Virus record (IMG/VR): IMGVR_UViG_3300017989_000087
Coordinates: 1 to 64,000 of that record
DNA length: 64,000 nt
Strand: one strand, 5' to 3'
From: a virus
Taxonomy: Duplodnaviria; Caudoviricetes
How positions within the stretch are numbered: the first letter of the stretch is position 1; each line of letters starts with the position of its first letter. The notes below the pieces were generated by a model. The model had not been told where the DNA came from. It made no database searches and saw nothing but the letters and a program-made list of their open reading frames with translations. Shown here piece after piece: positions 9,010-63,940 of the stretch. The position numbers and the translations under genes were made by a program.

Positions 9010-9417
9010 ATGTCAATCGCTTCGGGCTCTGGATCAGTTATGAAAGAGTTTGACTTTATGGCTATTAAAGTAACACCAAAAGCAAGCACAGCTATCACAA
9101 AGGGTGAGGTTCTTGTTAATCCTAACGGAAATGGATGGGAACCTTCTTTTAGTGGTGCTCATGGGCCTTTTATGGTTGCTCTCGAAGACGTAGCTTCCGC
9201 TGCCTCTCCAAGTGATGTGTCTATGCTACGCAGAGGCGTAGTTAAGCTGACAGCACAGGCTGACACAACGGAAGGGCAATTCGTTAAGCCCGGATCTAAT
9301 AGCGGAGAGGTAACACCACTTTCTACTTTTGGTACTGCTGATCTTAAGGGCATTGTTGGTTCGGCCCTTGAGGATGTTGACGCTACCGAGTGTGGTAAGT
9401 TCCTCATAGGTTATTGA
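9010..9417 (+). CDS. head decoration/cement protein
   Basis: 135 aa, small-residue-rich (ITKGEVLV..GPFMVALED..VSMLRRGVV..TEGQFV), directly upstream of MCP. Confidence 0.65.
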   Translation: MSIASGSGSVMKEFDFMAIKVTPKASTAITKGEVLVNPNGNGWEPSFSGAHGPFMVALEDVASAASPSDVSMLRRGVVKLTAQADTTEGQFVKPGSNSGEVTPLSTFGTADLKGIVGSALEDVDATECGKFLIGY

Positions 9418-22422: not shown

Positions 22423-23616
22423 TTGTCTGATCATTATACGTCTGGGGATGTGGTATATACCAAAGATTTTATGGGGATGATTAATGGTCTAAATCAAATT
22501 GGCGTAATTAAAGGTCTTGAAGTCACCGAATCGGATGGGATATTTCATACAATAATACAAAACGGTCTTATAGCATATTATAGATTTGAAGATGATGGTA
22601 ATGTATTACACGATTATAGTGGCAATAATTATCATGGAACATTAAAAAATTCACCAACTTGGGAAACTGGAAAAATTGGTAACTGTCTTGAGTTTGATGG
22701 TGTTAATCAATATGTAGAAACTAGTTCTGATCCTATCAATGCATCTAGTGCCAATTCTGAATTTTCTATAAGTTTTTGGATTTATCCAACTGCTGCTGCT
22801 GATGGCAATCTTAGACATGTTATTGATGATGGCATATGGACAAACGGAAGTTATGTTTTTTATATAAGTTCTGGTATGTCAAGAATAGTTTTCGGAATTC
22901 AAAATGATTCTGGTACAAGAAATGAAACAGCAAATGCTGTTATTTCTGTTGATACATGGCAACATGTTGTTGGTGTGTGGGATGGAACAAACACAAAAAT
23001 TTATATTGATAACAGTCTATCTTCTAATTCTGGTTCTATTGGTGGAAGCGTTTCCGGTCAGTCTTGGTTAAGAATTGCTCAAGCTACTACTGATTTTGAA
23101 GGCAAAATAGATGAAATAAGGATATATGATCGTGCGTTGTCATCAGATGAAATCGAATTAATATATAATGAAGAAAACACATTAGATAAAATGTCTGTTG
23201 ATGTGTCATCTGGAAGAGCATTGTTTGAAGATGTTTACATTGAAGCAGGAGATGAAACGTTAGAACTCAATGATTCTGATGCTTCTAATGACAGAAAAGA
23301 TTTAATTTATTTAACTCCGTCTGGTTCTTTGTCTATTTCAACAGGAACGGCAGCATCTACACCAATTCCACCGAATATTGGAGGAAATAAGAGAATGATA
23401 TTGGGCGAAATAACAGTATCCGCTGGTGCGTCAACAATCACAAACAGCGATATACGTGACGAGAGACATATGATTTATGGAAATAAATATCAAGATGTTT
23501 TTGAAGGTGGCAATCCAGATGATGGGATTTGTTCTGTCAATGATGATGAGGCATCACTTGATTCAGAAGATTGGTCAAGAGAATATAACCCAATGAAAAG
23601 ATGGGGTGGTTATTGA
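22423..23616 (+). CDS. LamG/concanavalin A-like domain tail protein
   Basis: GLIAYYRFE...DYSGNNYHG...GKIGNCLEFDG...FSISFWIYP...WQHVVGVWDG...FEGKIDEIRIYDRALSSDEI. Confidence 0.85.
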   Translation: MSDHYTSGDVVYTKDFMGMINGLNQIGVIKGLEVTESDGIFHTIIQNGLIAYYRFEDDGNVLHDYSGNNYHGTLKNSPTWETGKIGNCLEFDGVNQYVETSSDPINASSANSEFSISFWIYPTAAADGNLRHVIDDGIWTNGSYVFYISSGMSRIVFGIQNDSGTRNETANAVISVDTWQHVVGVWDGTNTKIYIDNSLSSNSGSIGGSVSGQSWLRIAQATTDFEGKIDEIRIYDRALSSDEIELIYNEENTLDKMSVDVSSGRALFEDVYIEAGDETLELNDSDASNDRKDLIYLTPSGSLSISTGTAASTPIPPNIGGNKRMILGEITVSAGASTITNSDIRDERHMIYGNKYQDVFEGGNPDDGICSVNDDEASLDSEDWSREYNPMKRWGGY

Positions 23617-26600
23617 TGCAAGCAAGCGATATTAAGTTTTATCTAACGGGTGCGAACTCTGATGGTGATACTCAGACGCAACCAAACAAATCTCTTGGTG
23701 GATTTAGGGGTTCAGAGATAGACAGCGGAAATATGAGAAATATTTTTGACCACGTAAGTTCCTCTGAAGCCGAATCTGGTGATGTCGAATATAGATGTGT
23801 GTGCATTAAAAACACACATTCTGTGGATTCGTTGACTAGCGCAAAGGTTTGGTTAGACTCTAATACATCTTCAGAAGAAAGTAATATAGAAATAGCTATT
23901 GATGCACCGTCTTCACAACCGTCTGGTAGCACACAAACCATTGATGATGAATCCACAGCACCCCTTTCATTAACTTTTTATGATTCATGTATTGATAGTT
24001 CCACGGGATTAGAGCTAGACGATCTAGAACCCGGTTATATATATTATGTATGGATAAAGAGAACTATTAATGCTGGTACTCCAGCAGCGTTGGATTCCTT
24101 TACATTAAAAGTTAATGGTGTTTATGAATACAAGACTAGTGCAACCATAACTGGTGCTCAATACAGAGAAGCGAGAAGAAATACAACTTATAATCCAGTA
24201 TTTTCATTTACAAAACCAACGGCATCAAAGATAAAAGCATCCTCTGGGAGTACGTCAATGGGTTATGGTTACTGGATATTTTATTTCAGCAAAAGCACCA
24301 TTCGAGATAATAAATTAAGGGTTACTTGGAACGGCGAATATGATCATTGGTATGGTGCTACATCTGGTAAAACATTTGCCAGAGTGGATGTATTAGATGG
24401 AACACAGGGTCCGAGTGAAGATTCTTTTTGGAATTCTAGATCTAGTGTTGAAGATGCACAAATAGGTACAATATGTACAAAGTCTACTGATGGTTCTTCA
24501 GATCCTTATACATTCGCCGAAACAGATGAAGACTATACAATAAACATATCTGGTGGATCAAGCGATAATTGTATGATAGTGTTCACATTAAATGATGCGT
24601 GGTCACAAGCAGGCATGAACATTGAGATTGATAAAGTTCAAATTATAGATTCTGATACTGAAGAGGTTTTATATACTGAAGAGTTTGATGATCAGACACT
24701 TACAGCAGATAGAAGTGATACGCATGCAGATTATGGTCATTTATATATGACTGTTGCACAGCAAGCATCAAGAACTATAAACCAAACAAAACAATCAAAC
24801 TATGCAATAGTAGATATAAATAACCCAACAACCAGATCTGTGTTTGATAATGGTTTAATAAGACTTAGATCGAGATTGGAAACTGATATGGTTGATGCCG
24901 GATCTTTGGATATATGGATAAAAGAAGCGGTGTGGGACGGCTCAACAACTAGCCAATCTTGGGAATATTATGGAAGACTTATGCCAGAAGCAGATGTATT
25001 TGATAGCCAATGTCCTTGGTCGAGAGTATTTATAAATTATATGGATTTCAACAAAACCGTTATGAGATATTATTTCACTAGTTCAATATATATGGATGTA
25101 ACTTTATATCGTGCATCTCAGGGACTTAAAGTAGAGTGGAGTTCTGGTGCTACTGGATACATGTATTGGTCAATAGCAAATGATAAGAGACCAAGGTTTG
25201 GTTATGGAGAAGGTGCAGATCTTGTTGATGCAAATGCTGAAACTGAAGATGGTTGGGATAATCTTGGAACAACAAACAATTGGTGTATAGTTTGGGATGA
25301 TACCTGTGATTATTTCTTGGGTTTGGCATTGACCGATGATTCAACTACACCCAGATGTTATTCAGATATAAGCAACGATGTTATAACAAAATTATCTACT
25401 GGAACATCTTCTGATTTGAATGAACCACATTTCTGGTTTTATTCAAGGAGATTTATGGATACTGTTTATAGATATTATGATGCAACTCTATCAGAAGGTG
25501 CAAAGATAGTAATTGATAATACTTCTTCTGATGGGTATTCATTAACTACGCCAGATTATTCAGCAAATTCTGACGAAATTAATTGGGCCGTTTGGAATGT
25601 TTGTAGTCCAAATGATTACAAACTTGTAGAAAGGAGAAAGAGTAGTAAAACTGGTACATTTGGTTTTAATGAATCCGATGGAACCAGCGGGGTTGGAATA
25701 AACAATGAAACGTTTGGCTTAGATGGATATTATTGGGACTACCTAATATATGTACCAAAGAAATGCAGAGTTGATACTGATGTTAGTGGTCCAGAAGATG
25801 TTGCAAATGAGCTGCTAATGAATTGGGATTATGGAATATTCATAGTTAATGATGATGATAGAGATTATGAAATAAAGCCAACATATGCTGATGTCACAAA
25901 CGATTGGAGTATTGACCCAGATGAATATTTTGTTATACCCCCATCAATTGATGATCTTGAAACAGGGAACCCCACATTTTATAGATTCACAAATGCTGAT
26001 TTTGCGAATGCTGAAAGACTCGAAGACACCGATGCAACACCAGACTATACATCACATTGGAGCACAGAAACAAGAAAATCGTTGACAGCAGATGATAGTG
26101 CATATATGGCAACAAGTGGAACACCCGGAATGCTGTCTTGGTCTATGGATATACCAAATAATAAATTCTGGGCATACGCTAGGTTACGTGCTGAAACAGA
26201 TGGTACAATTGGTTATAGGATAATGTCAACAAACGTTGGTGGGTCATATGACCTAACAGAAGATTGTCATAGAGAGCCAGATCCTGTTATGGGTTCTCCG
26301 ATTAACCAAGGATGGTCAACATTTGAAGGTGCATTCAGGGTTCTTGAAGGAACGTCAAACACTATTAAGCTAAGAGGATATGGAACTTCAGATAGGAGCC
26401 AGTTGTATGTTGTTGATAGGGTTGATGTTGTTCCTGTAGAAATTGCGCCATTCAAATATTATGTTCCAAGAGGCTCTGTGATTACGATATCAAACATAGA
26501 ATCAAAAAGGCTAAACGAAAACAGATGGAGAAATATGTTTCTGTCTGAAGAGATACGTGGGAGAGCAAGGTTAAATTATATGGATGTAAATGATGGAATG

Positions 26601-26744
26601 GATATGAATCAACACCAAATGCTTGAAATGACAGTTGAAAATTTATCAACTGCACCAACAAGCCCATCAAATGGGCAAATATATTTCAATACTTCTGACA
26701 ATAAGTTTTATGGGTATAAAGGAAATTCATGGGTTGAGCTATAA
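23616..26744 (+). CDS. large tail fibre/adhesin protein
   Basis: TGATG coupling with upstream gene; N-domain paralogous to 31106 ORF; middle and C-terminus paralogous to 19751 ORF. Confidence 0.75.
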   Translation: MQASDIKFYLTGANSDGDTQTQPNKSLGGFRGSEIDSGNMRNIFDHVSSSEAESGDVEYRCVCIKNTHSVDSLTSAKVWLDSNTSSEESNIEIAIDAPSSQPSGSTQTIDDESTAPLSLTFYDSCIDSSTGLELDDLEPGYIYYVWIKRTINAGTPAALDSFTLKVNGVYEYKTSATITGAQYREARRNTTYNPVFSFTKPTASKIKASSGSTSMGYGYWIFYFSKSTIRDNKLRVTWNGEYDHWYGATSGKTFARVDVLDGTQGPSEDSFWNSRSSVEDAQIGTICTKSTDGSSDPYTFAETDEDYTINISGGSSDNCMIVFTLNDAWSQAGMNIEIDKVQIIDSDTEEVLYTEEFDDQTLTADRSDTHADYGHLYMTVAQQASRTINQTKQSNYAIVDINNPTTRSVFDNGLIRLRSRLETDMVDAGSLDIWIKEAVWDGSTTSQSWEYYGRLMPEADVFDSQCPWSRVFINYMDFNKTVMRYYFTSSIYMDVTLYRASQGLKVEWSSGATGYMYWSIANDKRPRFGYGEGADLVDANAETEDGWDNLGTTNNWCIVWDDTCDYFLGLALTDDSTTPRCYSDISNDVITKLSTGTSSDLNEPHFWFYSRRFMDTVYRYYDATLSEGAKIVIDNTSSDGYSLTTPDYSANSDEINWAVWNVCSPNDYKLVERRKSSKTGTFGFNESDGTSGVGINNETFGLDGYYWDYLIYVPKKCRVDTDVSGPEDVANELLMNWDYGIFIVNDDDRDYEIKPTYADVTNDWSIDPDEYFVIPPSIDDLETGNPTFYRFTNADFANAERLEDTDATPDYTSHWSTETRKSLTADDSAYMATSGTPGMLSWSMDIPNNKFWAYARLRAETDGTIGYRIMSTNVGGSYDLTEDCHREPDPVMGSPINQGWSTFEGAFRVLEGTSNTIKLRGYGTSDRSQLYVVDRVDVVPVEIAPFKYYVPRGSVITISNIESKRLNENRWRNMFLSEEIRGRARLNYMDVNDGMDMNQHQMLEMTVENLSTAPTSPSNGQIYFNTSDNKFYGYKGNSWVEL

Positions 26745-27823
26745 TGACACTTTGGAATATGCGTGATGTCAAGTTAGCAGTTGATTCAAACGGTAATATC
26801 AGAATATCTGGTGTTAGTAATTTTAGATTTTCTTCTAGATATGGAACTATAAACGATGCCATTACATCTCTTCCATCAACTGGTGGCATTGTTGTGGTTG
26901 AACCCGGAACGTGGCAATCTGGAAATAGGCCCATATCGTTGGATTCAAATCAAGGATTGCTTGGATTCGGAACTAGTTCTATAATACATAATACAGATAC
27001 AACATATACTGATACACATACAATATCTGCTACTGGAACAGGTGCTTCTCATTTGGAAAATATAAACATAAGTAATGTCAAATTTACAGGTTTAACTGGT
27101 GGTGGTAGTGCTATAGATTTTGATTATGTTGATGATTTCACTATTGATAGGATTTGGGTTGATGGTGTATATGGAAATTGCATAAACCTAACAGAATGTG
27201 ATTATGGTGTTATTCAAGGATCAAAATTGATGAATTCTGTTAATGGTGCAGGGTTATATGTTGATAGTTGTGATTATGATGTCATATCCAATTGTTTCTT
27301 TCTTAATAACAATACATATGGTATTGATGTTGCCAGCGGTAGTACAAATACATTAATCACAAGTGGAAAAAATCATTTCTCAGGAAATAGTTCTGGAAAT
27401 GTTAATGATGATGGTACTGATACTGAGTGGGTCAGGGAAGGATTTGAAAGGTCTTTAACAGCTTGGGATGAAACCGAAGTTACGTACACGGATTCTACTG
27501 GTGATACATGGAGTTCTAATAGTGATGAAATAAAATCATTCAGGGTTATATACAGCTCTTCTCATGGGTTTCCGGTTTCAGATCTCCATATATGTGCTGA
27601 GATGAAAGCTGATGCAGGAACAGGATCTCTTGGTGTTTATGTTGATGGTGGCGGTAGTCCTGAGTTAACTCTTACAACAACCAATACTTCATATGAGGTT
27701 CAGAGTGGAACATTCTCAGTAACATGGTCGGATGAAACAATACACACAATAACCGTTAAATATAAAAACAGCGGTGCGGGTAATACTACATATAATAGAA
27801 CATTTGAATGTTATGCGGATTGA
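26744..27823 (+). CDS. right-handed parallel beta-helix (pectin-lyase-like) tailspike
   Basis: TINDAITSLPSTGGIVVVEPGTW, NINISNVKF, N..GI repeats. Confidence 0.75.
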   Translation: MTLWNMRDVKLAVDSNGNIRISGVSNFRFSSRYGTINDAITSLPSTGGIVVVEPGTWQSGNRPISLDSNQGLLGFGTSSIIHNTDTTYTDTHTISATGTGASHLENINISNVKFTGLTGGGSAIDFDYVDDFTIDRIWVDGVYGNCINLTECDYGVIQGSKLMNSVNGAGLYVDSCDYDVISNCFFLNNNTYGIDVASGSTNTLITSGKNHFSGNSSGNVNDDGTDTEWVREGFERSLTAWDETEVTYTDSTGDTWSSNSDEIKSFRVIYSSSHGFPVSDLHICAEMKADAGTGSLGVYVDGGGSPELTLTTTNTSYEVQSGTFSVTWSDETIHTITVKYKNSGAGNTTYNRTFECYAD

Positions 27824-27828
27824 TTAAA

Positions 27829-28602
27829 ATGGTAAATATAAGAAAATGCCAAACCTGTCAGCAATGTGATACATGTGAAACATGTGTTACATGCGAGAAT
27901 TGTGATAGTTGCGATGCTTCATGTGACGGGTTATGCGATTACTGTAATGAGTGCTATACATGTGACGCTTCTTGTGATGCCGAATGCGATGCAACATGTT
28001 ATTCTTGTGATGCCTGTGACAGCAGTTGTGACAACAATTGTAATGTGTGTGATGCCTGTGATACATGTGATGCAGCTTGTGATACATCTTGTGATACATG
28101 TGATACCGATTGTCATGCTCTATGTGATTATTGTTATGCTTGCAACACATGCGACTCGTCTTGTTATGTGTGTGATATCTGTGATTCTGCATGTTACAAT
28201 TGTGATGCTTGTGATACCTCCTGTGATGCGTCATGTGATGCCGTTTGTTATTCTTGTGACGCATGCGATACTAATTGTTATAACGAATGTGATACTTGTG
28301 ATTTAAATTGTGATGCAACTTGTGACAATAATTGCAATGTATGCGATGGGTGTGAAAATTGTGATATTTCATGCAATGCAACTTGTGATTCGGCTTGTTA
28401 TTCTTGCGACAGTTGTGATTCACAATGTTATAGTGAATGTGATAATTGTGATGCTTCTTGTGATGCCACATGTTACAATACTTGTAATATTTGTGATGGA
28501 TGTCAAACATGTGATTCAACCTGTTATACAGCTTGTGACGACTGTGATAACTGTTATTCTGAGACCTGTATCACATGCGATGGGGAGTGTGATTACTATT
28601 GA
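27829..28602 (+). CDS. Cys-rich CxxC/CxxxC-repeat protein 1 (candidate radical SAM substrate)
   Basis: ~72 Cys in 257 aa, spaced every 3-4 residues; ATG 5 nt after tailspike stop. Confidence 0.85.
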   Translation: MVNIRKCQTCQQCDTCETCVTCENCDSCDASCDGLCDYCNECYTCDASCDAECDATCYSCDACDSSCDNNCNVCDACDTCDAACDTSCDTCDTDCHALCDYCYACNTCDSSCYVCDICDSACYNCDACDTSCDASCDAVCYSCDACDTNCYNECDTCDLNCDATCDNNCNVCDGCENCDISCNATCDSACYSCDSCDSQCYSECDNCDASCDATCYNTCNICDGCQTCDSTCYTACDDCDNCYSETCITCDGECDYY

Positions 28603-29411
28603 ACATTAGAAACAGGGCAGAAAAAACCAACAATATCAGAGATACAGAATGTGCAATATGTGATTCTTGTTACTCTGGTTGTCAGACATGTGATAGTTGT
28701 GATACATGCGATGCTTCTTGTGATGCCAATTGCGATACAACCTGTTTTGCTTGTGATACATGTGATACCGATTGTGACGCAGATTGTGATTACTGTGATT
28801 CATGTTATACCTGTGACTCATCATGTGATGCCTCCTGCGACTCGTCTTGTTATGGATGCGATAACTGTGACTCATCTTGTTATAGTTCATGCGATTCATG
28901 TGATGCATCATGTTTTGCCAATTGTGATGCGGTATGTGATTCCTGTGATACATGTGATGGAGATTGCCACGATTGCAATACTTGTGATGCTGCATGCGTT
29001 TTGTGCGATTCTTGTGATTCTCATTGTGATGCAACATGTTATGAATGTGACAATTGTGATAGTTGTGATACCTCCTGCGACAAATCTTGTGATGCCTGTG
29101 ACACAGCATGTATAGGGACATGCGATGCGACTTGTGATGTATTATGTGTAGGGTGTGAAATTTGTGATACAGATTGTGATGCCACATGTGATAATTGTTA
29201 CAATTGTGACACATGCGATGCCTCTTGTGATACATCATGTGATGCTTGTGATACGGCCTGTATAGGAACGTGTGATGCATCATGCGATGTTGCTTGTTAC
29301 AGTTGTGATATATGCGATACAGATTGTTATACAACATGTGAAGAGTGTGATGCCTGTCAAAACTGCGAAGGAGAATGTGATTGGTGTTATGAATCCACAT
29401 ATTATGCATAA
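28599..29411 (+). CDS. Cys-rich CxxC/CxxxC-repeat protein 2 (candidate radical SAM substrate)
   Basis: ~71 Cys in 270 aa; TTG start overlapping the protein 1 stop (TTGA); same grammar. Confidence 0.85.
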   Translation: MNIRNRAEKTNNIRDTECAICDSCYSGCQTCDSCDTCDASCDANCDTTCFACDTCDTDCDADCDYCDSCYTCDSSCDASCDSSCYGCDNCDSSCYSSCDSCDASCFANCDAVCDSCDTCDGDCHDCNTCDAACVLCDSCDSHCDATCYECDNCDSCDTSCDKSCDACDTACIGTCDATCDVLCVGCEICDTDCDATCDNCYNCDTCDASCDTSCDACDTACIGTCDASCDVACYSCDICDTDCYTTCEECDACQNCEGECDWCYESTYYA

Positions 29412-29428
29412 AAGGAAAGATTAATAAA
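29411..29428 (+). promoter_or_regulatory. possible late-type promoter AAAGGAAAGATTAATAAA in front of the radical SAM gene
   Basis: Shares AAAGGAAAG with the late promoters; ATG 29452 would be a leaderless start. Confidence 0.45.
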
Positions 29429-29430
29429 GA

Positions 29431-30765
29431 ATGATGGAGAAATGTATTGTTATGACAAACAAAAAAAAGAAACATCCGATGGAAGGAAAGATAAGTTCGT
29501 TTACAGTTTTTGCAACTGAGAGATGCAACATGGCATGTGATTACTGCTTCGTTTATGAAATTTATCAAAAAACTGGTCAGCGTTTCCAAGGAAAAGATAT
29601 GAGTTTTGATACAGCTAAAGCAACAGTTGATTTTATGCTCAAGCAAGATGCATATCGTGGAAAGCAAGGTGGAAGAAACGGTAAACTATCGTGGCATTGG
29701 TTTGGTGGTGAACCGACAATAAGAATGGATCTATTGAAAGATACATGGACATATGCAACTGCAAGATCAAAAGAAGCAAATAAAGATATTCGTTGGGGAA
29801 TGACCACTAATGCGGTTGCTCTCGCAAATGATGATATTGCTGATTGGTTTATTACACACCAACCATTTCATTTTTTGATAAGCTTAGATGGTTGGGGTGA
29901 GTCACATGATATGCATAGAAAATTTACCAATGGAAAAGGAAGCTTTGGTGTTATAAAGAAAGGATTGGATAACATAATAAACAAGGTTCCAGAAAAAGAA
30001 TTAGAGATAAGGTGGACGGTATCGCCAGACAACGGTTCTTATGTTTTTGATTCTCTAAAAAAACTTATAAAATATGGTTTTAGAGCATTTGCATTAGATC
30101 CTGTTCATGAAGTAGAATGGTCAGATGAAGATTTGGATGTATATTATGACCAAGTGAGAAAAAGTGCATATATGTTAATGGACTTGCATAGAAAAGGAAT
30201 TCATATTCATTTCAAACCATTAAGAGATGGCGTGAGAGCTATTGCATCTACCATGAAAAGAAGCAACAGAAGATGTGGTATGGGTATGGGCAGTATATCA
30301 GTCACACCAGAAGGCAAGTTAGCTGCATGTCATAGATGGGTTAACAGACCAACAGATAAATACAATTATATTCTTGGTGATGTTTGGAATGGCATTGATT
30401 ATGGCGTTGCTGAAGAGTTCTGGTCGAAATTAAAAGTAGAAAATATAAGAAGTGAAGGATTTAATTGTAAAAATTGCCCGATGAAAGGAGGATGTATTGG
30501 CGGTTGTTTGGTTGTAAATTATGACCAAACGGGGGATATGAATATAATTCCGACAGAGACATGTGTTCATGAAAGAAGAAAATTCCCAATAGCTGCCGAG
30601 ATATATTCTATTATGTCTGCTGAAAAAAATGAGGGATTCTTTAGAAGATATGGACTTCCTCTGCCTTGGTCAGCCAAAAAAGTAGGAGATATAAAAAGAG
30701 AACGTGGTAATAGTAACAATAGTTGCTCTATTAACCCCAAAAATAGAAAACAAAACAAAAAATAA
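29431..30765 (+). CDS. radical SAM/SPASM-domain maturase (start may be 29452)
   Basis: CNMACDYC (Cx3Cx2C), WFGGEP, TTN, ISLDG; SPASM: CGMG..SISVTPEGKLAACH, CKNCPMKGGCIGGC...C. Confidence 0.93.
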   Translation: MMEKCIVMTNKKKKHPMEGKISSFTVFATERCNMACDYCFVYEIYQKTGQRFQGKDMSFDTAKATVDFMLKQDAYRGKQGGRNGKLSWHWFGGEPTIRMDLLKDTWTYATARSKEANKDIRWGMTTNAVALANDDIADWFITHQPFHFLISLDGWGESHDMHRKFTNGKGSFGVIKKGLDNIINKVPEKELEIRWTVSPDNGSYVFDSLKKLIKYGFRAFALDPVHEVEWSDEDLDVYYDQVRKSAYMLMDLHRKGIHIHFKPLRDGVRAIASTMKRSNRRCGMGMGSISVTPEGKLAACHRWVNRPTDKYNYILGDVWNGIDYGVAEEFWSKLKVENIRSEGFNCKNCPMKGGCIGGCLVVNYDQTGDMNIIPTETCVHERRKFPIAAEIYSIMSAEKNEGFFRRYGLPLPWSAKKVGDIKRERGNSNNSCSINPKNRKQNKK

Positions 30766-30805: not shown

Positions 30806-31081
30806 GTGATAACTTTGGCTTCAGATCCAGAAAACAACAATGACAGTATGATGTTTTTGATAAGAACATTGACTACACAGAGTACGGAACAAACGAAAAA
30901 AATGAATGAAATTTCTAAGGATGTTACAGAGATAAGTACCAAGCTTGATTTATTGCCATGTAAAGAACATGCCGAATTTATTAGAGCAAACTCTGAATTT
31001 AGGCTTAAAACACTTGGTTTCTCTGGGGCTATAGCGTTCTTGGTTTCGTTGGCTGTTGTTGTTGTTTCATTTATGTTATAG
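30806..31081 (+). CDS. small membrane protein (holin/hemolysin-XhlA-like topology)
   Basis: Coiled N-half, single C-terminal TM helix LGFSGAIAFLVSLAVVVVSFML. Confidence 0.55.
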   Translation: MITLASDPENNNDSMMFLIRTLTTQSTEQTKKMNEISKDVTEISTKLDLLPCKEHAEFIRANSEFRLKTLGFSGAIAFLVSLAVVVVSFML

Positions 31082-31105: not shown

Positions 31106-31672
31106 ATGGGTGTAACTGCTGCCGATATAAAATGGTACTTAACTGGTGCTAGTTCAGATGGTGGAGCACAGGCTGACCCAGATGCAGCGTTGGGAAACTA
31201 CAGGTCGTCAACTGAAATAACAAATGATAGTATTGAGAACCTGTTTGATAATGTTACTGGTGCTGAAGCAACATCTGGGGATATTGAATACAGATGCATT
31301 TGTATTAAAAATGAAAATGCATCTTCAAAGAATTGGTACAACGTTAAGTTCTTCATACAAACCAATACTCCTTCAGGCGATTCTTCGATAGAATTTGCTG
31401 TTGAGGCTGCCGAAGATGGAGACAGCGATGGAAGTGCTCAAACCATAGGTGACGAATCCACATCACCAACTGTTGGAACTGGAAGCGTTTCCGCTTGGGG
31501 TTCTGGAACAACATATGCTGGCGGTGTGGGGGTTAATCAAGGAGCACACGATGCCAATCTCGATGCTGGCGAACTTATATTCTTATGGCTCAAAAGAACT
31601 ATTGGTTCTGCTGCGAGTGCGTATGATGCGGATAATGTTGTTATGAGAGCACAGGGAGAAGCTACAGCATAA
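31106..31672 (+). CDS. virion protein, stand-alone paralogue of the N-domain of the 23616 ORF
   Basis: DIKWYLTGASSDG..Q.DP..ALG..RSS.EI...NLFDNV...EA.SGD.EYRCICIKN shared with the 23616 ORF. Confidence 0.8.
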   Translation: MGVTAADIKWYLTGASSDGGAQADPDAALGNYRSSTEITNDSIENLFDNVTGAEATSGDIEYRCICIKNENASSKNWYNVKFFIQTNTPSGDSSIEFAVEAAEDGDSDGSAQTIGDESTSPTVGTGSVSAWGSGTTYAGGVGVNQGAHDANLDAGELIFLWLKRTIGSAASAYDADNVVMRAQGEATA

Positions 31673-47844: not shown

Positions 47845-50800
47845 CTAATCAAAATCGAATGTTTTTCTTTCTTCAAACTCTTTTGTTTTTCCTTCATTCC
47901 ATTGGGATACTGGTCTGAGATATCCAACTACACGAGAATATACCTCACATCTCTCGCCACACATTGGACATTCGCTGAATTGACCAGAAAGATATCCGTG
48001 GTTTGGACAAGCCGAGAAGGTTGGTGTTATAGTGAAGTATGGCATCTTAAATGAATTAGTTATCTTTCCAACCATGTTTTTTAGAGAATCTACATTTGGG
48101 TGCTCATCTTGAAGGAATATATGGAATACTGTTCCACCAGTATATTTTGATTGGATATCATCTTGCAGGGTCATGGCCTTGAATAAGTTGTTTGTATAAT
48201 TAACTGGTAATTGTGTCGAATTGGTGTAGTATGGAACTTCATCAGTTCCAGCGGTAATGATATCCGGGTATTTATGCTTATCTATTCTCGCCAATCTATA
48301 TGAACATCCTTCTGCTGGTGTTGCTTCAAGATTAAACAAATGACCTGTTTCCTCTTGATAATCTATCATCCTTTCATTCATATGATCTAATACATTCAAC
48401 GTAAAATCAACCCCATCTTTCATAAACATATTTGAATCCATGAAATTTTCAAGGCACTCATTCATCCCAACCAAACCAATGGTTGAAAAATGATTGGCCC
48501 AATATTTCCCATGTCTTGATTTTACATCTCTAAGAAATATAGAAGAATATGGATATAACCCATTCTCAGAATAATTCTCTATTATATTTCTTTTTATTAT
48601 TAATGCATTTTTTGCAAGATCCATTAACGAATCTAATCTCTCATAGAAATCAGAATCGTCCTTGGATACATACCCAAGTTTTGGCATATTGATTGTAACA
48701 ACACCTATGCTACCTGTCAATGGGTTAGCACCAAAAAGACCCCCGCCTCTCTTAATCAATTCTTTTTTATTTAGGCGCAGCCGACAACACATTGATCTAA
48801 CATCATCTGGACTCATATCCGAATTAACAAAATTAGAAAAATATGGTATGCCATATTTAGATGTCATTTCCCATAGAGGATAATAATTTTCATTGTCCCA
48901 ATCGAAATCTTTTGTTATGTTTAGAGTTGGGATCGGAAATGAAAACGGATTTCCTCTTCCATCGCCCTCATTCATAACTTCACCAAAAGCACGATTAAAC
49001 ATATCGGCTTCATCAGCAAAATCACCATAGGTATCTTCCATATATTCCCCGCCTATGATAACTGGTTCATTTTCCATATAACTTGGTGTTTTTAAACTTA
49101 GAGTAAAATTTTCAAATGGTGATTGAAACCCGGTTCTAGTGGGGACATTGAGATTGAAAACAAATTCTTGCATTGCTTGTTTTAGTTCATCATAGCTTAT
49201 ATTATCATAACTAATAAATGGTGCAAGATACGCATCAACATCAGAAAAAGCCTGTGCTCCAGCGGATTCTCCTTGGAGGGTGTAAAGGAAGTTAACAACT
49301 TGGCCCATAGCGACCTTTAGATGTTTGGGCGGTTTACAATTTACTTTTCCCGAAACTCCATTAAATCCATGATCCAAAAGATCTCTCATATCCCATCCGA
49401 CACAGTTGCCAGATATAACAACCTTTCCATTTCTTTCAACAATTAATGTTCCGTTTGGAACAGATAGATCATATACTATACCATTGTATTTTACTATTTT
49501 TTTCTCTTTTCTGAATATTGGTGTTAGTTGTGAGTTTTGAACATACACCACATATACATTTTCTCTTTTGCCTATGGTTCCGCACTTACCAATCTTTAAT
49601 AAACACTCAACAACATCTTCTGCCAATCTTTTTGAGGCAGTAGTGTATTTTGTCATATTTCCATCTTTGAAAGAACCATCGCCTTTAAATAAAGCCATAA
49701 GAAATATTCTAATTTTTTCACTAGTCATATTTTTTATGTTATCGGGTATATATTTTGTCTTGCTTATTCCAAATTTTTTGAGATAATGATAAACTTCTTT
49801 TGAACAAAATTGAATATTATATTCTCCACAACTAGGAGAAAACCCCATATCCCTTACAATATCTATTACCTCATTTCTATATTTCATCTGAGCAATAGAT
49901 ATTATATAATCAGAAGAAGTTCTATCTTTTCTATTATTTTTCCATGCAGATCCTTCTGATATCCACCAACCCATAAACTTTAAATATAAGTCGGTTGGGA
50001 TTCGGACATGTCTTAATCTATTTCCCCCATTAATTTTTGGAAATGAAAACATAGGATCTGGTTCATTTCCACTCCAATTTACCCGCTTCAAAAATTCTGA
50101 GGATTTATCTAATTTTTCTGCAGTTGTGAATTCCCAATTGTTAGACGATTTTCGTTTAACAAACATCCTATGTTCAGGCGTAACAAGTAAATCTATTCCT
50201 CTTCCATCTATATGATATAAACTGCCATCATATTTATATACTTGTTTATCATATGGTTTTTGATATTCCATGTTTCCGTTGTCTGTATTATATGTTGCTA
50301 CTTTGTCATTTAATGTCACATCTGAAAAAGGTTTAAATCCATCTATGCAAAGAACTCTGGTTTTGTCATCAAAACAATAAGCTCCTAGTGTCCCGAGATC
50401 ATGTATATGTATATTACCATCATGATTTGATTTTCTTATATCATCTGGATATATCTCTTCAAGCCAATAATTTGATACTACTCTTGATGAAAGATAGTTA
50501 TTCAACCCCTGAAGTGAATATGTCATATTTGAATTTTCTTTTACTCTCCAATCTTCCTTATTTATATAATCTTGAACTATTTCTGTATCATGAACAAGTT
50601 TTGATATATTTCTTGCCTTGGAATGTTGTTCTCTATAGAGTATATACTTTTTTGCGGTTCTATAAAAACCAACTCTCATCAATGAAGTTTCAACCCTGTC
50701 CTGTATTTCTTCAACCGTTGGTGCATGATCCAACCGTTCTAGTTGTTGCGTAACATTATTCCCTATTCTTTTTGCATCGTCATGTTCTCCTTCACCAGTT

Positions 50801-50889
50801 GTTAAAAAGGCTTTATTCAATGCCGATATTATTTTTTCCTTATCAAATTTTTGGAGACTACCATCTCTTTTTCTTATTCGTTTAAGCAT
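47845..50889 (-). CDS. nrdD: anaerobic (class III) ribonucleoside-triphosphate reductase with ATP cone and intein
   Basis: IRKRDG ATP cone; SMCCRL finger loop; CPNHGY..CPMCG; glycyl-radical YSRVVGYLRP. Confidence 0.95.
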   Translation of the reverse strand: MLKRIRKRDGSLQKFDKEKIISALNKAFLTTGEGEHDDAKRIGNNVTQQLERLDHAPTVEEIQDRVETSLMRVGFYRTAKKYILYREQHSKARNISKLVHDTEIVQDYINKEDWRVKENSNMTYSLQGLNNYLSSRVVSNYWLEEIYPDDIRKSNHDGNIHIHDLGTLGAYCFDDKTRVLCIDGFKPFSDVTLNDKVATYNTDNGNMEYQKPYDKQVYKYDGSLYHIDGRGIDLLVTPEHRMFVKRKSSNNWEFTTAEKLDKSSEFLKRVNWSGNEPDPMFSFPKINGGNRLRHVRIPTDLYLKFMGWWISEGSAWKNNRKDRTSSDYIISIAQMKYRNEVIDIVRDMGFSPSCGEYNIQFCSKEVYHYLKKFGISKTKYIPDNIKNMTSEKIRIFLMALFKGDGSFKDGNMTKYTTASKRLAEDVVECLLKIGKCGTIGKRENVYVVYVQNSQLTPIFRKEKKIVKYNGIVYDLSVPNGTLIVERNGKVVISGNCVGWDMRDLLDHGFNGVSGKVNCKPPKHLKVAMGQVVNFLYTLQGESAGAQAFSDVDAYLAPFISYDNISYDELKQAMQEFVFNLNVPTRTGFQSPFENFTLSLKTPSYMENEPVIIGGEYMEDTYGDFADEADMFNRAFGEVMNEGDGRGNPFSFPIPTLNITKDFDWDNENYYPLWEMTSKYGIPYFSNFVNSDMSPDDVRSMCCRLRLNKKELIKRGGGLFGANPLTGSIGVVTINMPKLGYVSKDDSDFYERLDSLMDLAKNALIIKRNIIENYSENGLYPYSSIFLRDVKSRHGKYWANHFSTIGLVGMNECLENFMDSNMFMKDGVDFTLNVLDHMNERMIDYQEETGHLFNLEATPAEGCSYRLARIDKHKYPDIITAGTDEVPYYTNSTQLPVNYTNNLFKAMTLQDDIQSKYTGGTVFHIFLQDEHPNVDSLKNMVGKITNSFKMPYFTITPTFSACPNHGYLSGQFSECPMCGERCEVYSRVVGYLRPVSQWNEGKTKEFEERKTFDFD
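49405..50376 (-). mobile_element. intein (324 aa) with LAGLIDADG homing endonuclease in nrdD
   Basis: Starts CFDDKT, block B VTPEHRMF, LAGLIDADG-like FMGWWISEG and LMALFKGDG, block F VYDLSV, ends SGN/C; removal restores GAY-CVGWD. Confidence 0.92.
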
Positions 50890-50919
50890 AAAATCACTAC
50901 TCACACTTAGTTGGATGAG

Positions 50920-59423: not shown

Positions 59424-61079
59424 TCACATATATCCAAAAACATCTCTCAATACTTTCATTTTCTTTTCTTTCTGCGGATTTCTACCAGCTCTTTCTGATG
59501 TCGGATCTACTTCGGTACATGGTTCACAATCTAAACTTCTGTATCCCTGTGCATATAACGGATTTATAGGAATGTGGTATAGACGAATTGCAGACCATAT
59601 ATCGCTTTCACTATAATCAATAACAGGATGTATTCTATCATATTCATATCCTGTGTTTGTGGTTCTATGTGAAAACAATGTTTCGTCCTTCCAAGCGGGA
59701 TTGGTCCTTCTTATTGCTGTCATAACCCCATCAAAGTTTTCTTTTTCAATCAATTCATTGAATGGCTTTGCTTTTAGAGTTGCACAACATTCGGTTGATC
59801 CTATCTCAAAATTTCTTTTGCCCCTGTATTTTCCTATAAACAGTTCCGAATTATAGTAATTATTAAACTTTTCCAGAGTTTGCATAGTTTCATCAAAATG
59901 TAATCCTGTATCAACAAACAGAAGATTTAATTTATCAAAAACCTTTGAAGCAAAGTATAACATAACAGATGAATTTTTTCCAGTTGCTGTTGCAAATCCA
60001 ATGTTATTATATTTTTCTTTTGCCTTTGTCAAATTGCCCAACAATTCATATGTCTTATTTGTAACTCTGGGATCAACCTTGTCTATTAATGATTTGGGAA
60101 ATTCTTCGCTTGTTGGTATTTCAACATATTCAGATGAATTATTTGTAACAAACATATATGAACTTTTCGCAGTAAATATTCTCCTTGGATTGACATAAGG
60201 ATATTCAACATAAGCAAAATCCTGAAACGGTGTTTCATAATCTAGTATTTTGGGTATCTCCTTTAGAGATATCACATCCCCAGAATTGCCAACCGAATTT
60301 TCTGATCTGACACACAAAGGAACATGGACAACATAATCATTCATAAAATAATATCCATGACCATATGGTTGTTTATAATTATAGTTATCTCCATGATCCG
60401 CTGTTACAACAATATCTGCGTCTTCTTTCGATAATTCTATAAGAAGTTCATCCATGTCTTGGATCGCATTTTTCTGATAGTTATATATTTTTTTTATTTT
60501 ATCTTCCCAGTATGGAAGAGGTGAATTGTTTCTTTCGAGAAATTTCTTATGAACATTTGATAATTTCATATAGTTATATACCTTTGGTTCTTTTTGATTA
60601 TGAGTAATAAAAGGCTGATGCGTATCTGCAACTTGAAACCACGCAATATAAGGTTCTTTTTTTAATTCATTAAATTTTCTTAAACAATCAATAAATAATG
60701 GAAATGGCTTATTTTTTCTCATATGGGTTCCCCTTGGTGTAATAGGTTCATCAACAACAACATCAATTCCATCTGGGGTTCCAATCTCTGTTGAAAACCA
60801 CGGCAACCCTGTAAAAACGTATGTGTTGTATCCCATTTCTTTGTAAATTTCAAATATGTTTTTCTTCAACAAAATAAAACGTTGTCTTACAGTTGTGCAT
60901 CTGTGAGGATATTCACCAGTTATCATAGAGGAAACAGATGGCAAAGTCCAAGTAGATGGAGAATAAGCTTTGTCAAAATTTTGCCAACCTCTGTTAAAGG
61001 TCATATTAGAATCATCAAATATTTGCTTACATACGCTGTCCAAACAAACTATAATTTTATTCCTCATAATATTCACCAA
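59424..61079 (-). CDS. sulfatase-like (alkaline phosphatase superfamily) domain fused to PAPS-reductase/CysD-family domain
   Basis: N: CLDS, WTLPSVSSMITG, TADHG, HVPL; C: ATGKNS, FVDTG.HFDET, CC..LK, RIHP..D..E.DIW, YRSLDCEPCT, ERAGR. Confidence 0.85.
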   Translation of the reverse strand: MVNIMRNKIIVCLDSVCKQIFDDSNMTFNRGWQNFDKAYSPSTWTLPSVSSMITGEYPHRCTTVRQRFILLKKNIFEIYKEMGYNTYVFTGLPWFSTEIGTPDGIDVVVDEPITPRGTHMRKNKPFPLFIDCLRKFNELKKEPYIAWFQVADTHQPFITHNQKEPKVYNYMKLSNVHKKFLERNNSPLPYWEDKIKKIYNYQKNAIQDMDELLIELSKEDADIVVTADHGDNYNYKQPYGHGYYFMNDYVVHVPLCVRSENSVGNSGDVISLKEIPKILDYETPFQDFAYVEYPYVNPRRIFTAKSSYMFVTNNSSEYVEIPTSEEFPKSLIDKVDPRVTNKTYELLGNLTKAKEKYNNIGFATATGKNSSVMLYFASKVFDKLNLLFVDTGLHFDETMQTLEKFNNYYNSELFIGKYRGKRNFEIGSTECCATLKAKPFNELIEKENFDGVMTAIRRTNPAWKDETLFSHRTTNTGYEYDRIHPVIDYSESDIWSAIRLYHIPINPLYAQGYRSLDCEPCTEVDPTSERAGRNPQKEKKMKVLRDVFGYM

Positions 61080-62145: not shown

Positions 62146-63033
62146 CTAATACCTCTTTAATGTTGGTATCAATAAATTTCTATAATCAATATCATATTCA
62201 TCAGATAATATATGACACAATTTAATAATATCTTCGTCTTTTAATATTTCCTCTATTGTTTCATTCATAAGAATACTTTTAAATGTGTTATCTTCAAACA
62301 CAGTTTTGTTATGTTCCACATACTGATGGAAGAAATCTTTTTGTGTTTTAAACACAGATGGCTGAACACCTTTTACCATGTATCTTGCTCCAACATTACC
62401 TCCAATACTGTGATGATAATTGTTTTCCCAGAACATCTCCATATCAGAAGTTATTGGAAATTTAAAATGATCCAACACTCTGGTGATTTCATGTTTGGGG
62501 TTTGTGACAAGTTGTTTGTATTCAACAAATTCTCTTGCAAAGAATTTTCTAGATAAATTCAACAATTCATATTGAGTTCTTATAAATTCATCTTTTGCAT
62601 GTTTATATGCTTCAGTAAAAGTTCTGTGTTTTTTTGAAGCTCTGTAGAATGAATGTTTTATTATACTTGAAATTTGTCTAACAGGATCTTTGTATAGTGT
62701 AACAGGATATATATTATACTTTCTATGAACACCATTATTGTACAACTTTGTGAACCACTTATATGATTTTGATGAATCAATAATATAATTTTTTGATTCC
62801 AAACCAGATACTATCTTATACCAGTTTTCAATATCTCTATTGTGACAATTTTTTACCAATTTGCATTGCTTTGTTGTACCGCACACAAGACATTCTCTTG
62901 TTCCGTTTATGTCATCTAGATGAACTGCCTCACCAACCATCAATGTATCTGGATGATTGCCCAACATCAATCCGAACATGGTCGATCCGCAAAAATTATT
63001 TCCCATAATCCAAATAACATTAACGTCCAATGT
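62146..63033 (-). CDS. sulfotransferase paralogue 2
   Basis: IMGNNFCGSTMFGLMLGNHPD..VGE, CLVC..C, IIDSSK, YKDP, H.IGGN. Confidence 0.8.
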   Translation of the reverse strand, partial: TLDVNVIWIMGNNFCGSTMFGLMLGNHPDTLMVGEAVHLDDINGTRECLVCGTTKQCKLVKNCHNRDIENWYKIVSGLESKNYIIDSSKSYKWFTKLYNNGVHRKYNIYPVTLYKDPVRQISSIIKHSFYRASKKHRTFTEAYKHAKDEFIRTQYELLNLSRKFFAREFVEYKQLVTNPKHEITRVLDHFKFPITSDMEMFWENNYHHSIGGNVGARYMVKGVQPSVFKTQKDFFHQYVEHNKTVFEDNTFKSILMNETIEEILKDEDIIKLCHILSDEYDIDYRNLLIPTLKRY

Positions 63034-63940
63034 CATCACCAAGTAATATACTAATGCCATGCATGGGTGTATTCCTAAGATGTGCCATATATGTTATTCT
63101 AGAATTGTCAACAATGCAAGATGAACTTCTGTATGTCCCTGTCCTTGGTCCCGAAACAGAAGGAAATGAAACGATACTATCATCTATTATCCAATCATAA
63201 CCATCATCTGATACTGCCGTGTGTGTGCTCCAATGTATTATAGGCGAATCAGTTTTAACAAAATGCATCTCATATCTATCACCATTTTTTATAACATCTG
63301 GATGTCCAACGTTTTGATCCCACTCAAATACCTTAACTGGTGATGACCAGTTAAACAAGTTGCTTGATTCAGTTAACCATATTGATTTATATATTGATGG
63401 TATTCCTTCATTGATGTCATATTTTTCTCTTCTCGCAAACCACATCTTAAATATATCATTATCTCTCACAATCGCTGGTTCCATAGCATTTCCAATAATG
63501 GGTTTATTACTTTCCCTACTCCAGTTAACACCGTCATCAGATTTGACCATGCATATATGTCCCGATTGACCAAAATTTGATTTGGTATTTGACATTGTAT
63601 GATCATCAATCGTGGATAAACCAACTCCTGTATAAAACAGGTATAGTTCTCTATTGTAAAATAGAACGTCAGGATCTGCTAAGTGGTCTTTTTCAAAAAT
63701 ACCGATATCTCTATCTTTTATAGAGACAACAGGGTTATCTATGCCCTTGTCTGTGAATGAAAAACCATCATTACTTCTAACCAGACAGGGATTCTCCGCT
63801 TCATTTGGAGGATATGGGGTATAGAAAAGCCAGTATTTGTATCCTTTAAAACCGTTCTTTATGAACAATATATCTGGGTGAGTAACACCAAATCCATCAT
63901 ATTTGGGCAAGTCTAAAGATATTTCCATATAAATCACCAT
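63020..63940 (-). CDS. five-bladed beta-propeller glycoside hydrolase-like protein
   Basis: HPDIL...YKYWLFYTPYP...ENP...SNDG; repeated blades ADPDV, SDDG..W, EPAIV, HPDV. Confidence 0.7.
   Translation of the reverse strand: MVIYMEISLDLPKYDGFGVTHPDILFIKNGFKGYKYWLFYTPYPPNEAENPCLVRSNDGFSFTDKGIDNPVVSIKDRDIGIFEKDHLADPDVLFYNRELYLFYTGVGLSTIDDHTMSNTKSNFGQSGHICMVKSDDGVNWSRESNKPIIGNAMEPAIVRDNDIFKMWFARREKYDINEGIPSIYKSIWLTESSNLFNWSSPVKVFEWDQNVGHPDVIKNGDRYEMHFVKTDSPIIHWSTHTAVSDDGYDWIIDDSIVSFPSVSGPRTGTYRSSSCIVDNSRITYMAHLRNTPMHGISILLGDDIGR

Follow-up and report, generated by a model that had tools for sequence, protein, structure and literature searches.

The first 64,000 nucleotides of the 86,828-bp single-contig virus record IMGVR_UViG_3300017989_000087 (Duplodnaviria; Caudoviricetes), hereafter referred to as the window, carry a cassette at positions 27,829 to 30,765 that encodes two Cys-repeat proteins, CysA and CysB, and a radical S-adenosylmethionine (SAM) enzyme with a SPASM domain, located directly behind a tailspike-like gene. 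The reading favoured here, to which we assign about an even chance of being right, is that the enzyme installs thioethers between Cys and other side chains on CysA and CysB, which would be leaderless proteins associated with the tail fibres. A thioether-forming activity is favoured because the profiles best matched by the enzyme are those of the Cys-Asp/Glu thioether formers PapB and QhpD, followed by the SCIFF maturase. The chemistry, acceptor residue, processivity, virion location and function discussed below are inferred.

The radical SAM/SPASM enzyme

The enzyme gene (29431-30765, plus strand) encodes a PapB-like protein of 444 aa, and a start at the ATG at 29452, the position equivalent to that at which the enzymes of relatives begin, would give 437 aa. 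The radical SAM motif was found at C32-x3-C36-x2-C39 and the GGEP motif at residues 92-95, and the SPASM domain includes seven Cys residues (282, 300, 346, 349, 355, 359 and 378), among them C346-x2-C349-x5-C355-x3-C359. The preliminary description of this DNA had named a complete radical SAM (Cx3Cx2C, GGEP) and SPASM (CxxCx5Cx3C) enzyme, and all of these motifs could be located. The score against Pfam Radical_SAM (PF04055) was 53.1 bits, above the cutoff of 29.5, and that against the SPASM model TIGR04085 was 40 bits, above the cutoff of 27, with PF13186 alone giving 17.3, under its cutoff of 21.5.

When the enzyme was compared with 52 families, the PapB family (NF047865) was at the top with 227.3 bits, as against a cutoff of 340 for membership, and was followed by QhpD (TIGR03906; 166 bits, cutoff 453), the SCIFF maturase (TIGR03974; 164.9 bits, cutoff 425) and the CXXX-repeat maturase (TIGR04115; 129.9 bits, cutoff 350). 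The CrpC-type model (TIGR04463) gave 59.8 bits (cutoff 525). Relatives in both of the Cys-linked clades described below score 199-205 bits on the PapB profile, which is again their best curated family. The closest solved structure is that of CteB (PDB 5wgg; 3e-30), aligned from CteB residue 98. The order of the profiles, with PapB ahead of QhpD and SCIFF at nearly equal scores and the sulfatase-maturating type at 70 bits, bears out the earlier placement of the enzyme in the neighbourhood of thioether-forming SPASM maturases. As judged by these scores, it is an enzyme of the PapB-like ranthisynthase type, outside every named family.

Profiles that bear a recognition element (RRE) for peptides made on ribosomes and modified after translation (RiPPs) were matched only from position 89-99, and only 31 residues precede the CX3CX2C motif. 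Given this late start of the alignments, on the RRE-bearing profiles as on CteB, and the short N-terminal part, the enzyme has no RRE, and profile searches gave no match to a PqqD-like RRE within it. No signal peptide, leader, peptidase or exporter was found at the window cassette, and the preliminary description, which had listed RRE, peptidase and exporter as absent, was correct in this respect. Hence, the combination of leader and RRE that characterises ranthipeptide and sactipeptide systems was not found in the cassette.

Given that anaerobic sulfatase-maturating enzymes (anSME) are also SPASM enzymes, and that a Pfam Sulfatase domain is present in one of the proteins of the virus (59424-61079), the enzyme might instead be an anSME for that sulfatase-like protein, or some other radical SAM enzyme with a non-peptide substrate, in which case the Cys-repeat open reading frames (ORFs) would be incidental neighbours. 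This is very improbable. The two anSME profiles gave 70.5 bits (TIGR03942; cutoff 349) and 40 bits (cutoff 441), as against 227 bits for PapB, the viral sulfatase-like domain lacks the C/S-x-P-x-R formylglycine motif, and the linkage of the enzyme to Cys-repeat ORFs persists in viruses with which the window virus has no other gene in common. The low profile scores and the missing formylglycine motif rule out an anSME identity, and clustering with non-peptide radical SAM enzymes such as anSME, named in the preliminary description as an outcome that would speak against its proposal, was not seen in the profile search.

A second radical SAM protein (396 aa) is encoded at 66816-68006 of the genome (L104 2819-4006, minus strand) and has weak matches of the B12-binding methyltransferase type. 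It was ruled out as a SPASM maturase.

Linkage to Cys-repeat genes in relatives

Relatives were gathered from viral and genome collections by alignment-based scans, and also by protein search and the look-up of exact proteins, and every fetched locus was scanned for Cys-periodic frames. Used as a single-sequence query against viral contigs, the enzyme retrieved nothing, whereas the alignment-based scan did retrieve relatives. At each of the 27 loci with a radical SAM protein scoring at least 137 bits to the window enzyme, an ORF with Cys at period 3 is located directly upstream, and the truncated locus L039 (91 bits) also includes an upstream Cys ORF. In contrast, a period-3 Cys ORF was found beside none of ~70 weaker homologues. 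The survey of co-occurrence that had been suggested as a check was therefore positive for the closest loci (27/27) and negative for the distant ones. The linked set amounts to ~16 lineages, with the P0003/P0121 pair counted in, and includes a complete 113.9-kb virus with terminal repeats.

In a FastTree phylogeny, the window enzyme belongs to a clade of 12 rows (SH-like support 99), and all 11 rows of known context in this clade are Cys-linked, as is the whole of a second clade (support 100). Both are separate from the SCIFF maturases, and the branching between the two was not resolved by FastTree. A terminase search of the genomes holding L010 and L024-27 gave no match; these genomes appear to be either not close kin of the window virus or fragments.

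Two further kinds of locus were observed. A bacterial type, found in Acidobacteriota and on one viral contig (L018 3530-4444, minus strand; L029 7137-7667; L030 7284-7754; L031 7229-7741), has a PapB-like radical SAM gene beside genes for signal-peptide proteins made of period-4 CxxxC repeats with Glu/Gln, and is a cellular, apparently exported counterpart of the viral period-3 family. In Phage Phass-1 from the human gut, which uses genetic code 15, a related radical SAM gene is followed by a gene for a 174-aa protein with a short terminal repeat of 8 Cys (L106 7141-7662), a miniature of the Cys-repeat theme in a recoded phage.

Sequence properties of CysA and CysB

CysA (27829-28602, plus strand) consists of 257 aa with 72 Cys (28%) arranged as (C-x-x / C-x-x-x)n, and CysB (28599-29411, plus strand), with 270 aa and 71 Cys (26%), has the same grammar. 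Consecutive Cys residues are spaced by 3 (38 times), 4 (32 times) or 5 (once) in CysA and by 3 or 4 (35 times each) in CysB, and the first Cys is residue 7 and residue 18, respectively. Thus, two tandem ORFs with ~70 Cys each in CxxC or CxxxC spacing and Cys-free N-termini of 6 and 17 aa, as first described, were recovered, the single spacing of 5 excepted. An Asp directly follows Cys in 44 units of CysA and 48 units of CysB, and an Asp or Glu is present at +4 or +5 from 49 of the 72 Cys in CysA and 52 of the 71 in CysB. Acidic residues (D+E) number 56 in CysA and 64 in CysB, as against 2 and 5 basic residues (K+R). As the I, L, V, M, F and W residues total only 15 and 18, an ordinary hydrophobic core is not possible.

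CysA begins with a short conserved sequence, M-x-N-I-R-x-C, and its C-terminus (...CDYY) is aromatic, and CysB has a conserved Cys-free N-terminus of 17 aa (M-N-I-R-...-N-I-R-D-T-E-C) and ends in ...STYYA. An ATG at 27808 is likewise open for CysA, and the conserved N-terminus agrees with the start at 27829. A 150-nt internal super-repeat is found in each gene. CysB starts at a TTG that overlaps the stop codon of CysA, and start and stop codons overlap or abut all along the row of spike, CysA and CysB, which suggests translational coupling across the three genes. A -1 frameshift that would fuse the spike to CysA was considered and rejected, as in the CysA frame a TGA directly precedes the ATG at 27808, and no slippery heptamer is present in the 16-nt overlap.

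An AlphaFold2 (AF2) model of CysA, built with a 12-row alignment, had a mean pLDDT (predicted local distance difference test) value of 36 and no usable fold. This failure would fit a structure dependent on modification or on metal, but proves nothing.

Coding frame of the Cys-repeat genes

Several frames are open across the Cys-repeat DNA, and gene calls of the Joint Genome Institute (JGI) on the same or nearly identical DNA pick others than the Cys frame. In the window these calls are in Val/Met/His-rich frames at 27866-28306, 28310-28609, 28651-29115 and 29272-29424; alternative-frame calls were likewise made on L109 (1915-3473; 146, 98, 154 and 49 aa) and L001 (8651-9974; 122, 44 and 127 aa). 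The Cys ORFs might on these grounds be regarded not as genes but as frames kept open by repetitive TGT/GAT-rich DNA, the genuine products being encoded in the Val/Met/His-rich frames, an explanation that is hardly tenable given the following comparison.

The window was compared with L001, a relative in which the flanks are 90-93% identical. The differences fall at codon positions 1, 2 and 3 of the Cys frame in the numbers 14, 11 and 36, and synonymous and nonsynonymous codon changes number 28 and 25 in the Cys frame, as against 4 and 50, and 5 and 46, in the other two. The pattern of codon positions and the ratios of synonymous to nonsynonymous changes thus define the Cys frame as the coding frame, and CysA and CysB are real genes. 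Furthermore, only the Cys frames extend from a coupled start to a stop and occupy the interval between the neighbouring genes, and lineages with enzymes only 27-54% identical retain both the periodicity of Cys and the motifs at the N- and C-termini.

Only one homologue was retrieved when 5.8 billion protein clusters were searched. The single protein-database match of CysB is P0121, which is encoded beside the radical SAM protein P0003. Because public gene calls are in the wrong frame, the Cys-repeat family is almost absent from protein databases. The cassette therefore exposes a blind spot in annotation, in that public pipelines read these genes out of frame.

The spike protein and its jelly-roll domain

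The gene directly upstream of CysA (26744-27823, plus strand) encodes a tailspike-like protein of 359 aa with an N-terminal right-handed beta-helix and a C-terminal jelly-roll domain (CTD; residues ~237-359). The score of 28.9 bits on Pfam Beta_helix (PF13229; cutoff 25.9) places the protein with the phage tailspikes and agrees with the beta-helix tailspike that had been noted in front of the Cys ORFs. The AF2 model of the CTD is a jelly roll with pLDDT of 72-90, and in comparisons with VIA-align its fold matched the TNF-like C-domain of Pgp3 (Z 11.8) and CBM36/CBM6 (Z ~10). The beta-helix part matched the tailspikes of phage CBA120 (Z 9.7-10.1), with the model being of low confidence in that part. 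Other genes of the tail module encode a tape-measure protein and proteins with matches to fibre-type, baseplate-type and virion-structural PHROG families.

In the clade of the window enzyme, the ~120-residue jelly-roll CTD is always directly upstream of the Cys pair and is the first member of the cassette, homologues being present in this position in L004, L006, L007, L024, L025 and L026/27. In L004 (710-1909) and L025 (3515-4795) the CTD is carried on other N-terminal parts, for example one of S-D-D-H-P-Q-Y-L repeats with no beta-helix. As the CTD is attached to quite different N-terminal parts in relatives, the CTD, Cys pair and enzyme behave as a transferable module.

On the other side, the cassette adjoins an ORF of 91 aa with a C-terminal hydrophobic segment (30806-31081, plus strand), which is also present in L001 and L109, whereas other lineages have unrelated genes downstream of the radical SAM gene. 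This ORF was rejected as a cassette member or RRE as it is not conserved. The genes at 23601-26744 and 31106-31672 share an N-terminal domain matching PHROG 13135 (1e-28 and 1e-19, respectively), and the 188-aa copy (31106-31672) lies between the cassette and the gene for a 1440-aa repeat fibre. A homologue of residues 326-463 of this fibre is located beside the cassette in L025.

Variation and fusions in the Cys-repeat family

The ground state of the family is the Cys-X-X triplet, with one protein consisting of 33 consecutive triplets. Other members include a single spacer of 4 or 6 residues at regular intervals, giving repeats of 5 Cys per 16, 7 per 22 or 6 per 21 residues. The window virus is a derived form in which spacings of 3 and 4 residues are equally frequent and Cys is followed by Asp. 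In relatives this place is taken by Gln, Asn, Tyr, Glu or Val, and the Cys-Asp grammar is specific to the window virus.

In the clade of the window enzyme, the pair is kept as an A type (M-x-N-I-R-x-C) and a B type (M-x-N-I-R...N-I/L-R/K-D-V/T-E-C), with aromatic C-termini, and the B-type N-terminus is conserved in L004/5, L006, L007, L024-27 and L039. The repeat interiors are hypervariable. The spike and the enzyme of L001 are ~96-98% identical to those of the window, as against 75% for CysA and CysB, which are shorter in L001 by 66 and 63 residues, respectively, with all aligned Cys kept. Such variation would fit repeat-mediated diversification of an exposed part. L001 further includes, between CysA and CysB, a strongly hydrophobic ORF of 67 aa (9138-9341) that is not in the window.

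In many relatives the radical SAM protein has an N-terminal Cys-repeat extension, or a small third Cys ORF is located just before the enzyme gene, with examples at L003 456-2132 (P0002), in P0003, and at L007 4609-5844 (P0009), L026 5679-6008 and L039 3775-4173; the window has neither. The Cys segment of the enzyme itself may be either a substrate in cis or a docking segment.

In at least eight lineages, the Cys repeat forms the C-terminus of a larger protein of 255 to 1470 aa. P0121, of 467 aa, has a Cys-repeat C-terminus and is encoded downstream of a Phage_tube_2 gene, three genes after proteins of 547 and 891 aa. In L010, a 255-aa fusion lies behind an 807-aa protein that matches virion-structural PHROGs. 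The fusions in L011-L017 are of 820-1470 aa; their N-terminal parts match viral clusters, and the downstream neighbour matches tail-fibre families. Phage-tail_3 is found in a quarter of the members of one of these N-part cluster sets, which is a lead only.

The cassette might alternatively make a RiPP-like product with no structural role, such as a toxin, a factor for signalling or host takeover, or an exclusion agent that is released, encoded among the late genes. RiPP maturases dominate the profile neighbourhood of the enzyme, the bacterial relatives pair the enzyme with signal-peptide CxxxC proteins (L018, L029-31), and in some gut phages short precursor-like peptides are encoded beside related enzymes (L107). 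However, a leader, RRE, peptidase, exporter and signal peptide are all missing from the cassette, the products are of 257-270 aa, the overlapping start and stop codons suggest that translation is coupled to that of the spike gene, and in the lineages with fusions the repeat is joined to structural modules. Hence, we judge this explanation improbable. The view that the products are structural proteins and not secreted peptides, already put forward in the preliminary description, gains comparative support from the fusions in virion and tail-fibre neighbourhoods and from the upstream jelly roll.

Proposed cross-linking of CysA and CysB

In the favoured reading, the RRE-less radical SAM/SPASM enzyme encoded next to CysA and CysB would act on both as its substrates. 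It would cleave SAM and abstract a side-chain hydrogen, at C-beta or C-gamma, from the residue that follows a Cys, and the carbon radical site would then be joined to the sulfur of a nearby Cys, as for PapB, QhpD and CrpC. The acceptor would mostly be Asp in the window virus and Gln, Asn, Glu or Tyr in relatives, and D, N, E, Q and Y after Cys would all be able to stabilise a side-chain radical. Read in this way, CxxCD is a Cys-X3-Asp motif and CxxxCD a Cys-X4-Asp motif, and their iteration would produce a ladder in which thioether macrocycles overlap and could not be opened by reductants. The product would be a part or partner of the tail-fibre or tailspike apparatus, probably together with the upstream jelly-roll C-terminal domain, and not an exported peptide.

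Several observations weigh against this reading. The enzyme is below the curated cutoff of every named family, and CysA and CysB have no match among Pfam, PHROG or NCBIfam models, for NCBIfam even at E <= 1; phrog_15341 matches the Cys regions of L010, L012 and L014 only. As the Asp behind Cys is replaced by other residues in relatives, it is no conserved requirement, and the acceptor residue is uncertain. Gene position and fusions suggest a role in the virion and are not proof of one, as the large fusion partners belong to no named family and their assignment to the tail rests on neighbourhood and on the weak Phage-tail_3 lead. Finally, the dense CxxC Cys could bind Zn, Fe or Fe-S clusters, instead of or besides being cross-linked.

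The last point leads to a separate explanation, in which the Cys-repeat proteins are metal or Fe-S arrays, with CxxC knuckles, of a metallothionein-like or mineral-binding kind, and the radical SAM enzyme makes few or no cross-links or has another role. It fits the Cys content of ~27% in CxxC and CxxxC spacing with almost no hydrophobic residues, the failure of AF2 to find a fold for CysA (pLDDT 36) and the sulfidic sediment habitat. Moreover, the authors of the study of the Cys-repeat protein CrpA suspect a metal role, the cluster being upregulated in M. voltae on pyrite (PMC13692751). On the other hand, strict linkage to a PapB-like maturase of the thioether type is left unexplained if there is no modification, the position after Cys is limited to D, N, Q, E or Y, which are known or plausible thioether acceptors, and repeats of 5 Cys in 16, 7 in 22 and 6 in 21 residues are a poor fit to sets of four ligands. 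An array that serves for metal binding in place of cross-linking is therefore considered unlikely, though not negligible. The two are not exclusive, as thiols left over from cross-linking could bind metal.

Disulfides anchor fibres in an oxic cyanophage (PMC9942802). Cross-links that are not reducible would make sense in sulfidic sediment, where such disulfides would not last. A bolder proposal, which is tentative and on the doubtful side, is that tailed viruses of anaerobic archaea and bacteria make a novel protein material, namely a (Cys-X-X)n chain that a dedicated radical SAM enzyme converts independently of a leader into a continuous ladder of overlapping thioether rings, carried as paired paralogues on the tips of fibres or spikes. 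Through changes in the X positions and in copy number it would form a fast-diversifying host-contact surface that survives reducing, sulfidic conditions. If the favoured reading is true, RiPP-type radical chemistry builds parts of virus particles and not only antibiotics and cofactors, and viruses of anoxic habitats own a redox-proof substitute for the disulfide. One enzyme with two leaderless substrates would also be a compact system for processive thioether installation, at ~70 sites per chain, of potential use in the stapling of peptides and proteins.

The virus and its habitat

The window encodes a terminase, a portal, an HK97-type major head protein and a tape-measure protein, after which many fibre and spike genes come in succession on the plus strand. 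An arm of replication and metabolism genes on the minus strand includes those for a family-B DNA polymerase (PolB), the anaerobic ribonucleotide reductase NrdD, glycosyltransferases and sulfur activation. NrdD (47845-50904, minus strand) contains an ATP-cone and is interrupted by a LAGLIDADG domain, probably an intein.

For the head protein, a Methanomicrobiales virus was the sole match in 50,697 phage records; for PolB, haloarchaeal tailed viruses gave the best full-length matches. The viral DNA is present in sediment and seawater metagenomes from four studies, no RNA dataset being listed among those that contain it, and an identical sequence (100% identity) was assembled from other samples, including L109. 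Relatives of the cassette were found on contigs binned into metagenome-assembled genomes of Culexarchaeota, Brockarchaeota and Thermoprotei. Given the matches of the head protein and PolB and the occurrence in sediment, an archaeal host in anoxic sediment is likely for this virus, for which no direct link to a host was found. The presence of an anaerobic NrdD and the sediment origin indicate a setting that suits an oxygen-sensitive enzyme.

Genes for sulfur activation or sulfation are located at 59424-61079, 62146-63060 and 63020-63940 of the window and at 73646-74518 of the genome (L104 9649-10518), with glycosyltransferase genes nearby. The set includes a 3'-phosphoadenosine 5'-phosphosulfate (PAPS)-reductase-like domain fused to the alkaline-phosphatase/sulfatase-like domain, in which the formylglycine motif is missing, one or more sulfotransferase-like ORFs, and an adenosine 5'-phosphosulfate (APS) kinase fused to a cytidylyltransferase-like domain. 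These genes could serve for the sulfation of glycans or for the supply of Cys for the ~143 Cys residues of CysA and CysB. One paper remarks that viruses of methane-cycling archaea that carry cysH have raised Cys codon use and Cys-rich tail spikes (PMC9723712).

Comparison with known systems

CteB, the SCIFF maturase of known structure, shares with the window enzyme the radical SAM and SPASM architecture and Cys thioether chemistry. It differs in having an N-terminal RRE and a 45-residue, six-Cys peptide as its substrate, and belongs to a separate clade of the tree. The CXXX-repeat system (TIGR04115, with the targets TIGR04114/TIGR04117) is similar in that a radical SAM/SPASM enzyme is found with long Cys-periodic repeat proteins. 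However, CysA and CysB miss the target models, the viral period is 3 and not 4, and signal peptides are missing; the Cys protein of L018 has a faint match to TIGR04117.

In the QhpD/QhpC system, intra-protein methylene thioethers from Cys to Asp or Glu tie together a structural subunit of little regular fold. QhpC differs from CysA and CysB in that it has a leader and only a few cross-links; the product is the gamma subunit of quinohemoprotein amine dehydrogenase.

There is a likeness in motif to PapB and its substrate PapA, as the CxxCD of CysA and CysB is a Cys-X3-Asp motif, the type used by PapB. In Cys-X3-Asp motifs, PapB links the sulfur of Cys to Asp at its beta-carbon (for Glu, at the gamma-carbon), accepts 0-6 residues in between, and forms nested or in-line rings (PMC9413430), and it functions without a leader or RRE (PMC12715619). 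The window enzyme is nevertheless under the PapB cutoff of 340 bits, and its cassette has neither RRE nor leader. PapA is a short peptide with six in-line motifs, whereas CysA and CysB have ~70 overlapping motifs in 257-270 aa. Furthermore, the window system is viral and situated in a tail module, and its relatives use Q, N, Y or E in place of Asp.

The SPASM radical SAM enzyme CrpC of Methanococcus voltae, published in September 2026, has seven SPASM Cys and an AuxI cluster with an open iron site, and forms ranthionine links on the 28.8-kDa Cys-repeat protein CrpA at C-X-X-Q/D motifs (PMC13692751). It is an archaeal system and, like the window cassette, has seven SPASM Cys, a protein-sized Cys-repeat substrate encoded next to the enzyme, and a second, paralogous partner (CrpB), the window cassette being that of a probable archaeal virus with CysA and CysB as its proposed substrates. 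Unlike the window cassette, it includes a leader-like N-domain of 47 residues in CrpA and an RRE in CrpC. CrpA has a 17-residue motif repeated 10 times, with far lower Cys density than CysA and CysB, and the Crp cluster is cellular and not linked to viruses or tails.

The preliminary description had called protein-sized substrates unusual. They are indeed larger than classic precursors, though CrpC/CrpA (PMC13692751) and QhpD/QhpC make this less of an anomaly than it had seemed. Full-text literature searches found no description of a virus-encoded radical SAM enzyme paired with Cys-repeat tail proteins. The cross-linking of a neighbouring, protein-sized, Cys-rich substrate by a SPASM enzyme is already known (PMC13692751), and what distinguishes the present system is its occurrence in a probable archaeal virus, the dense and long triplet repeat, the A/B pair behind a jelly roll, and the RRE-less enzyme clade.

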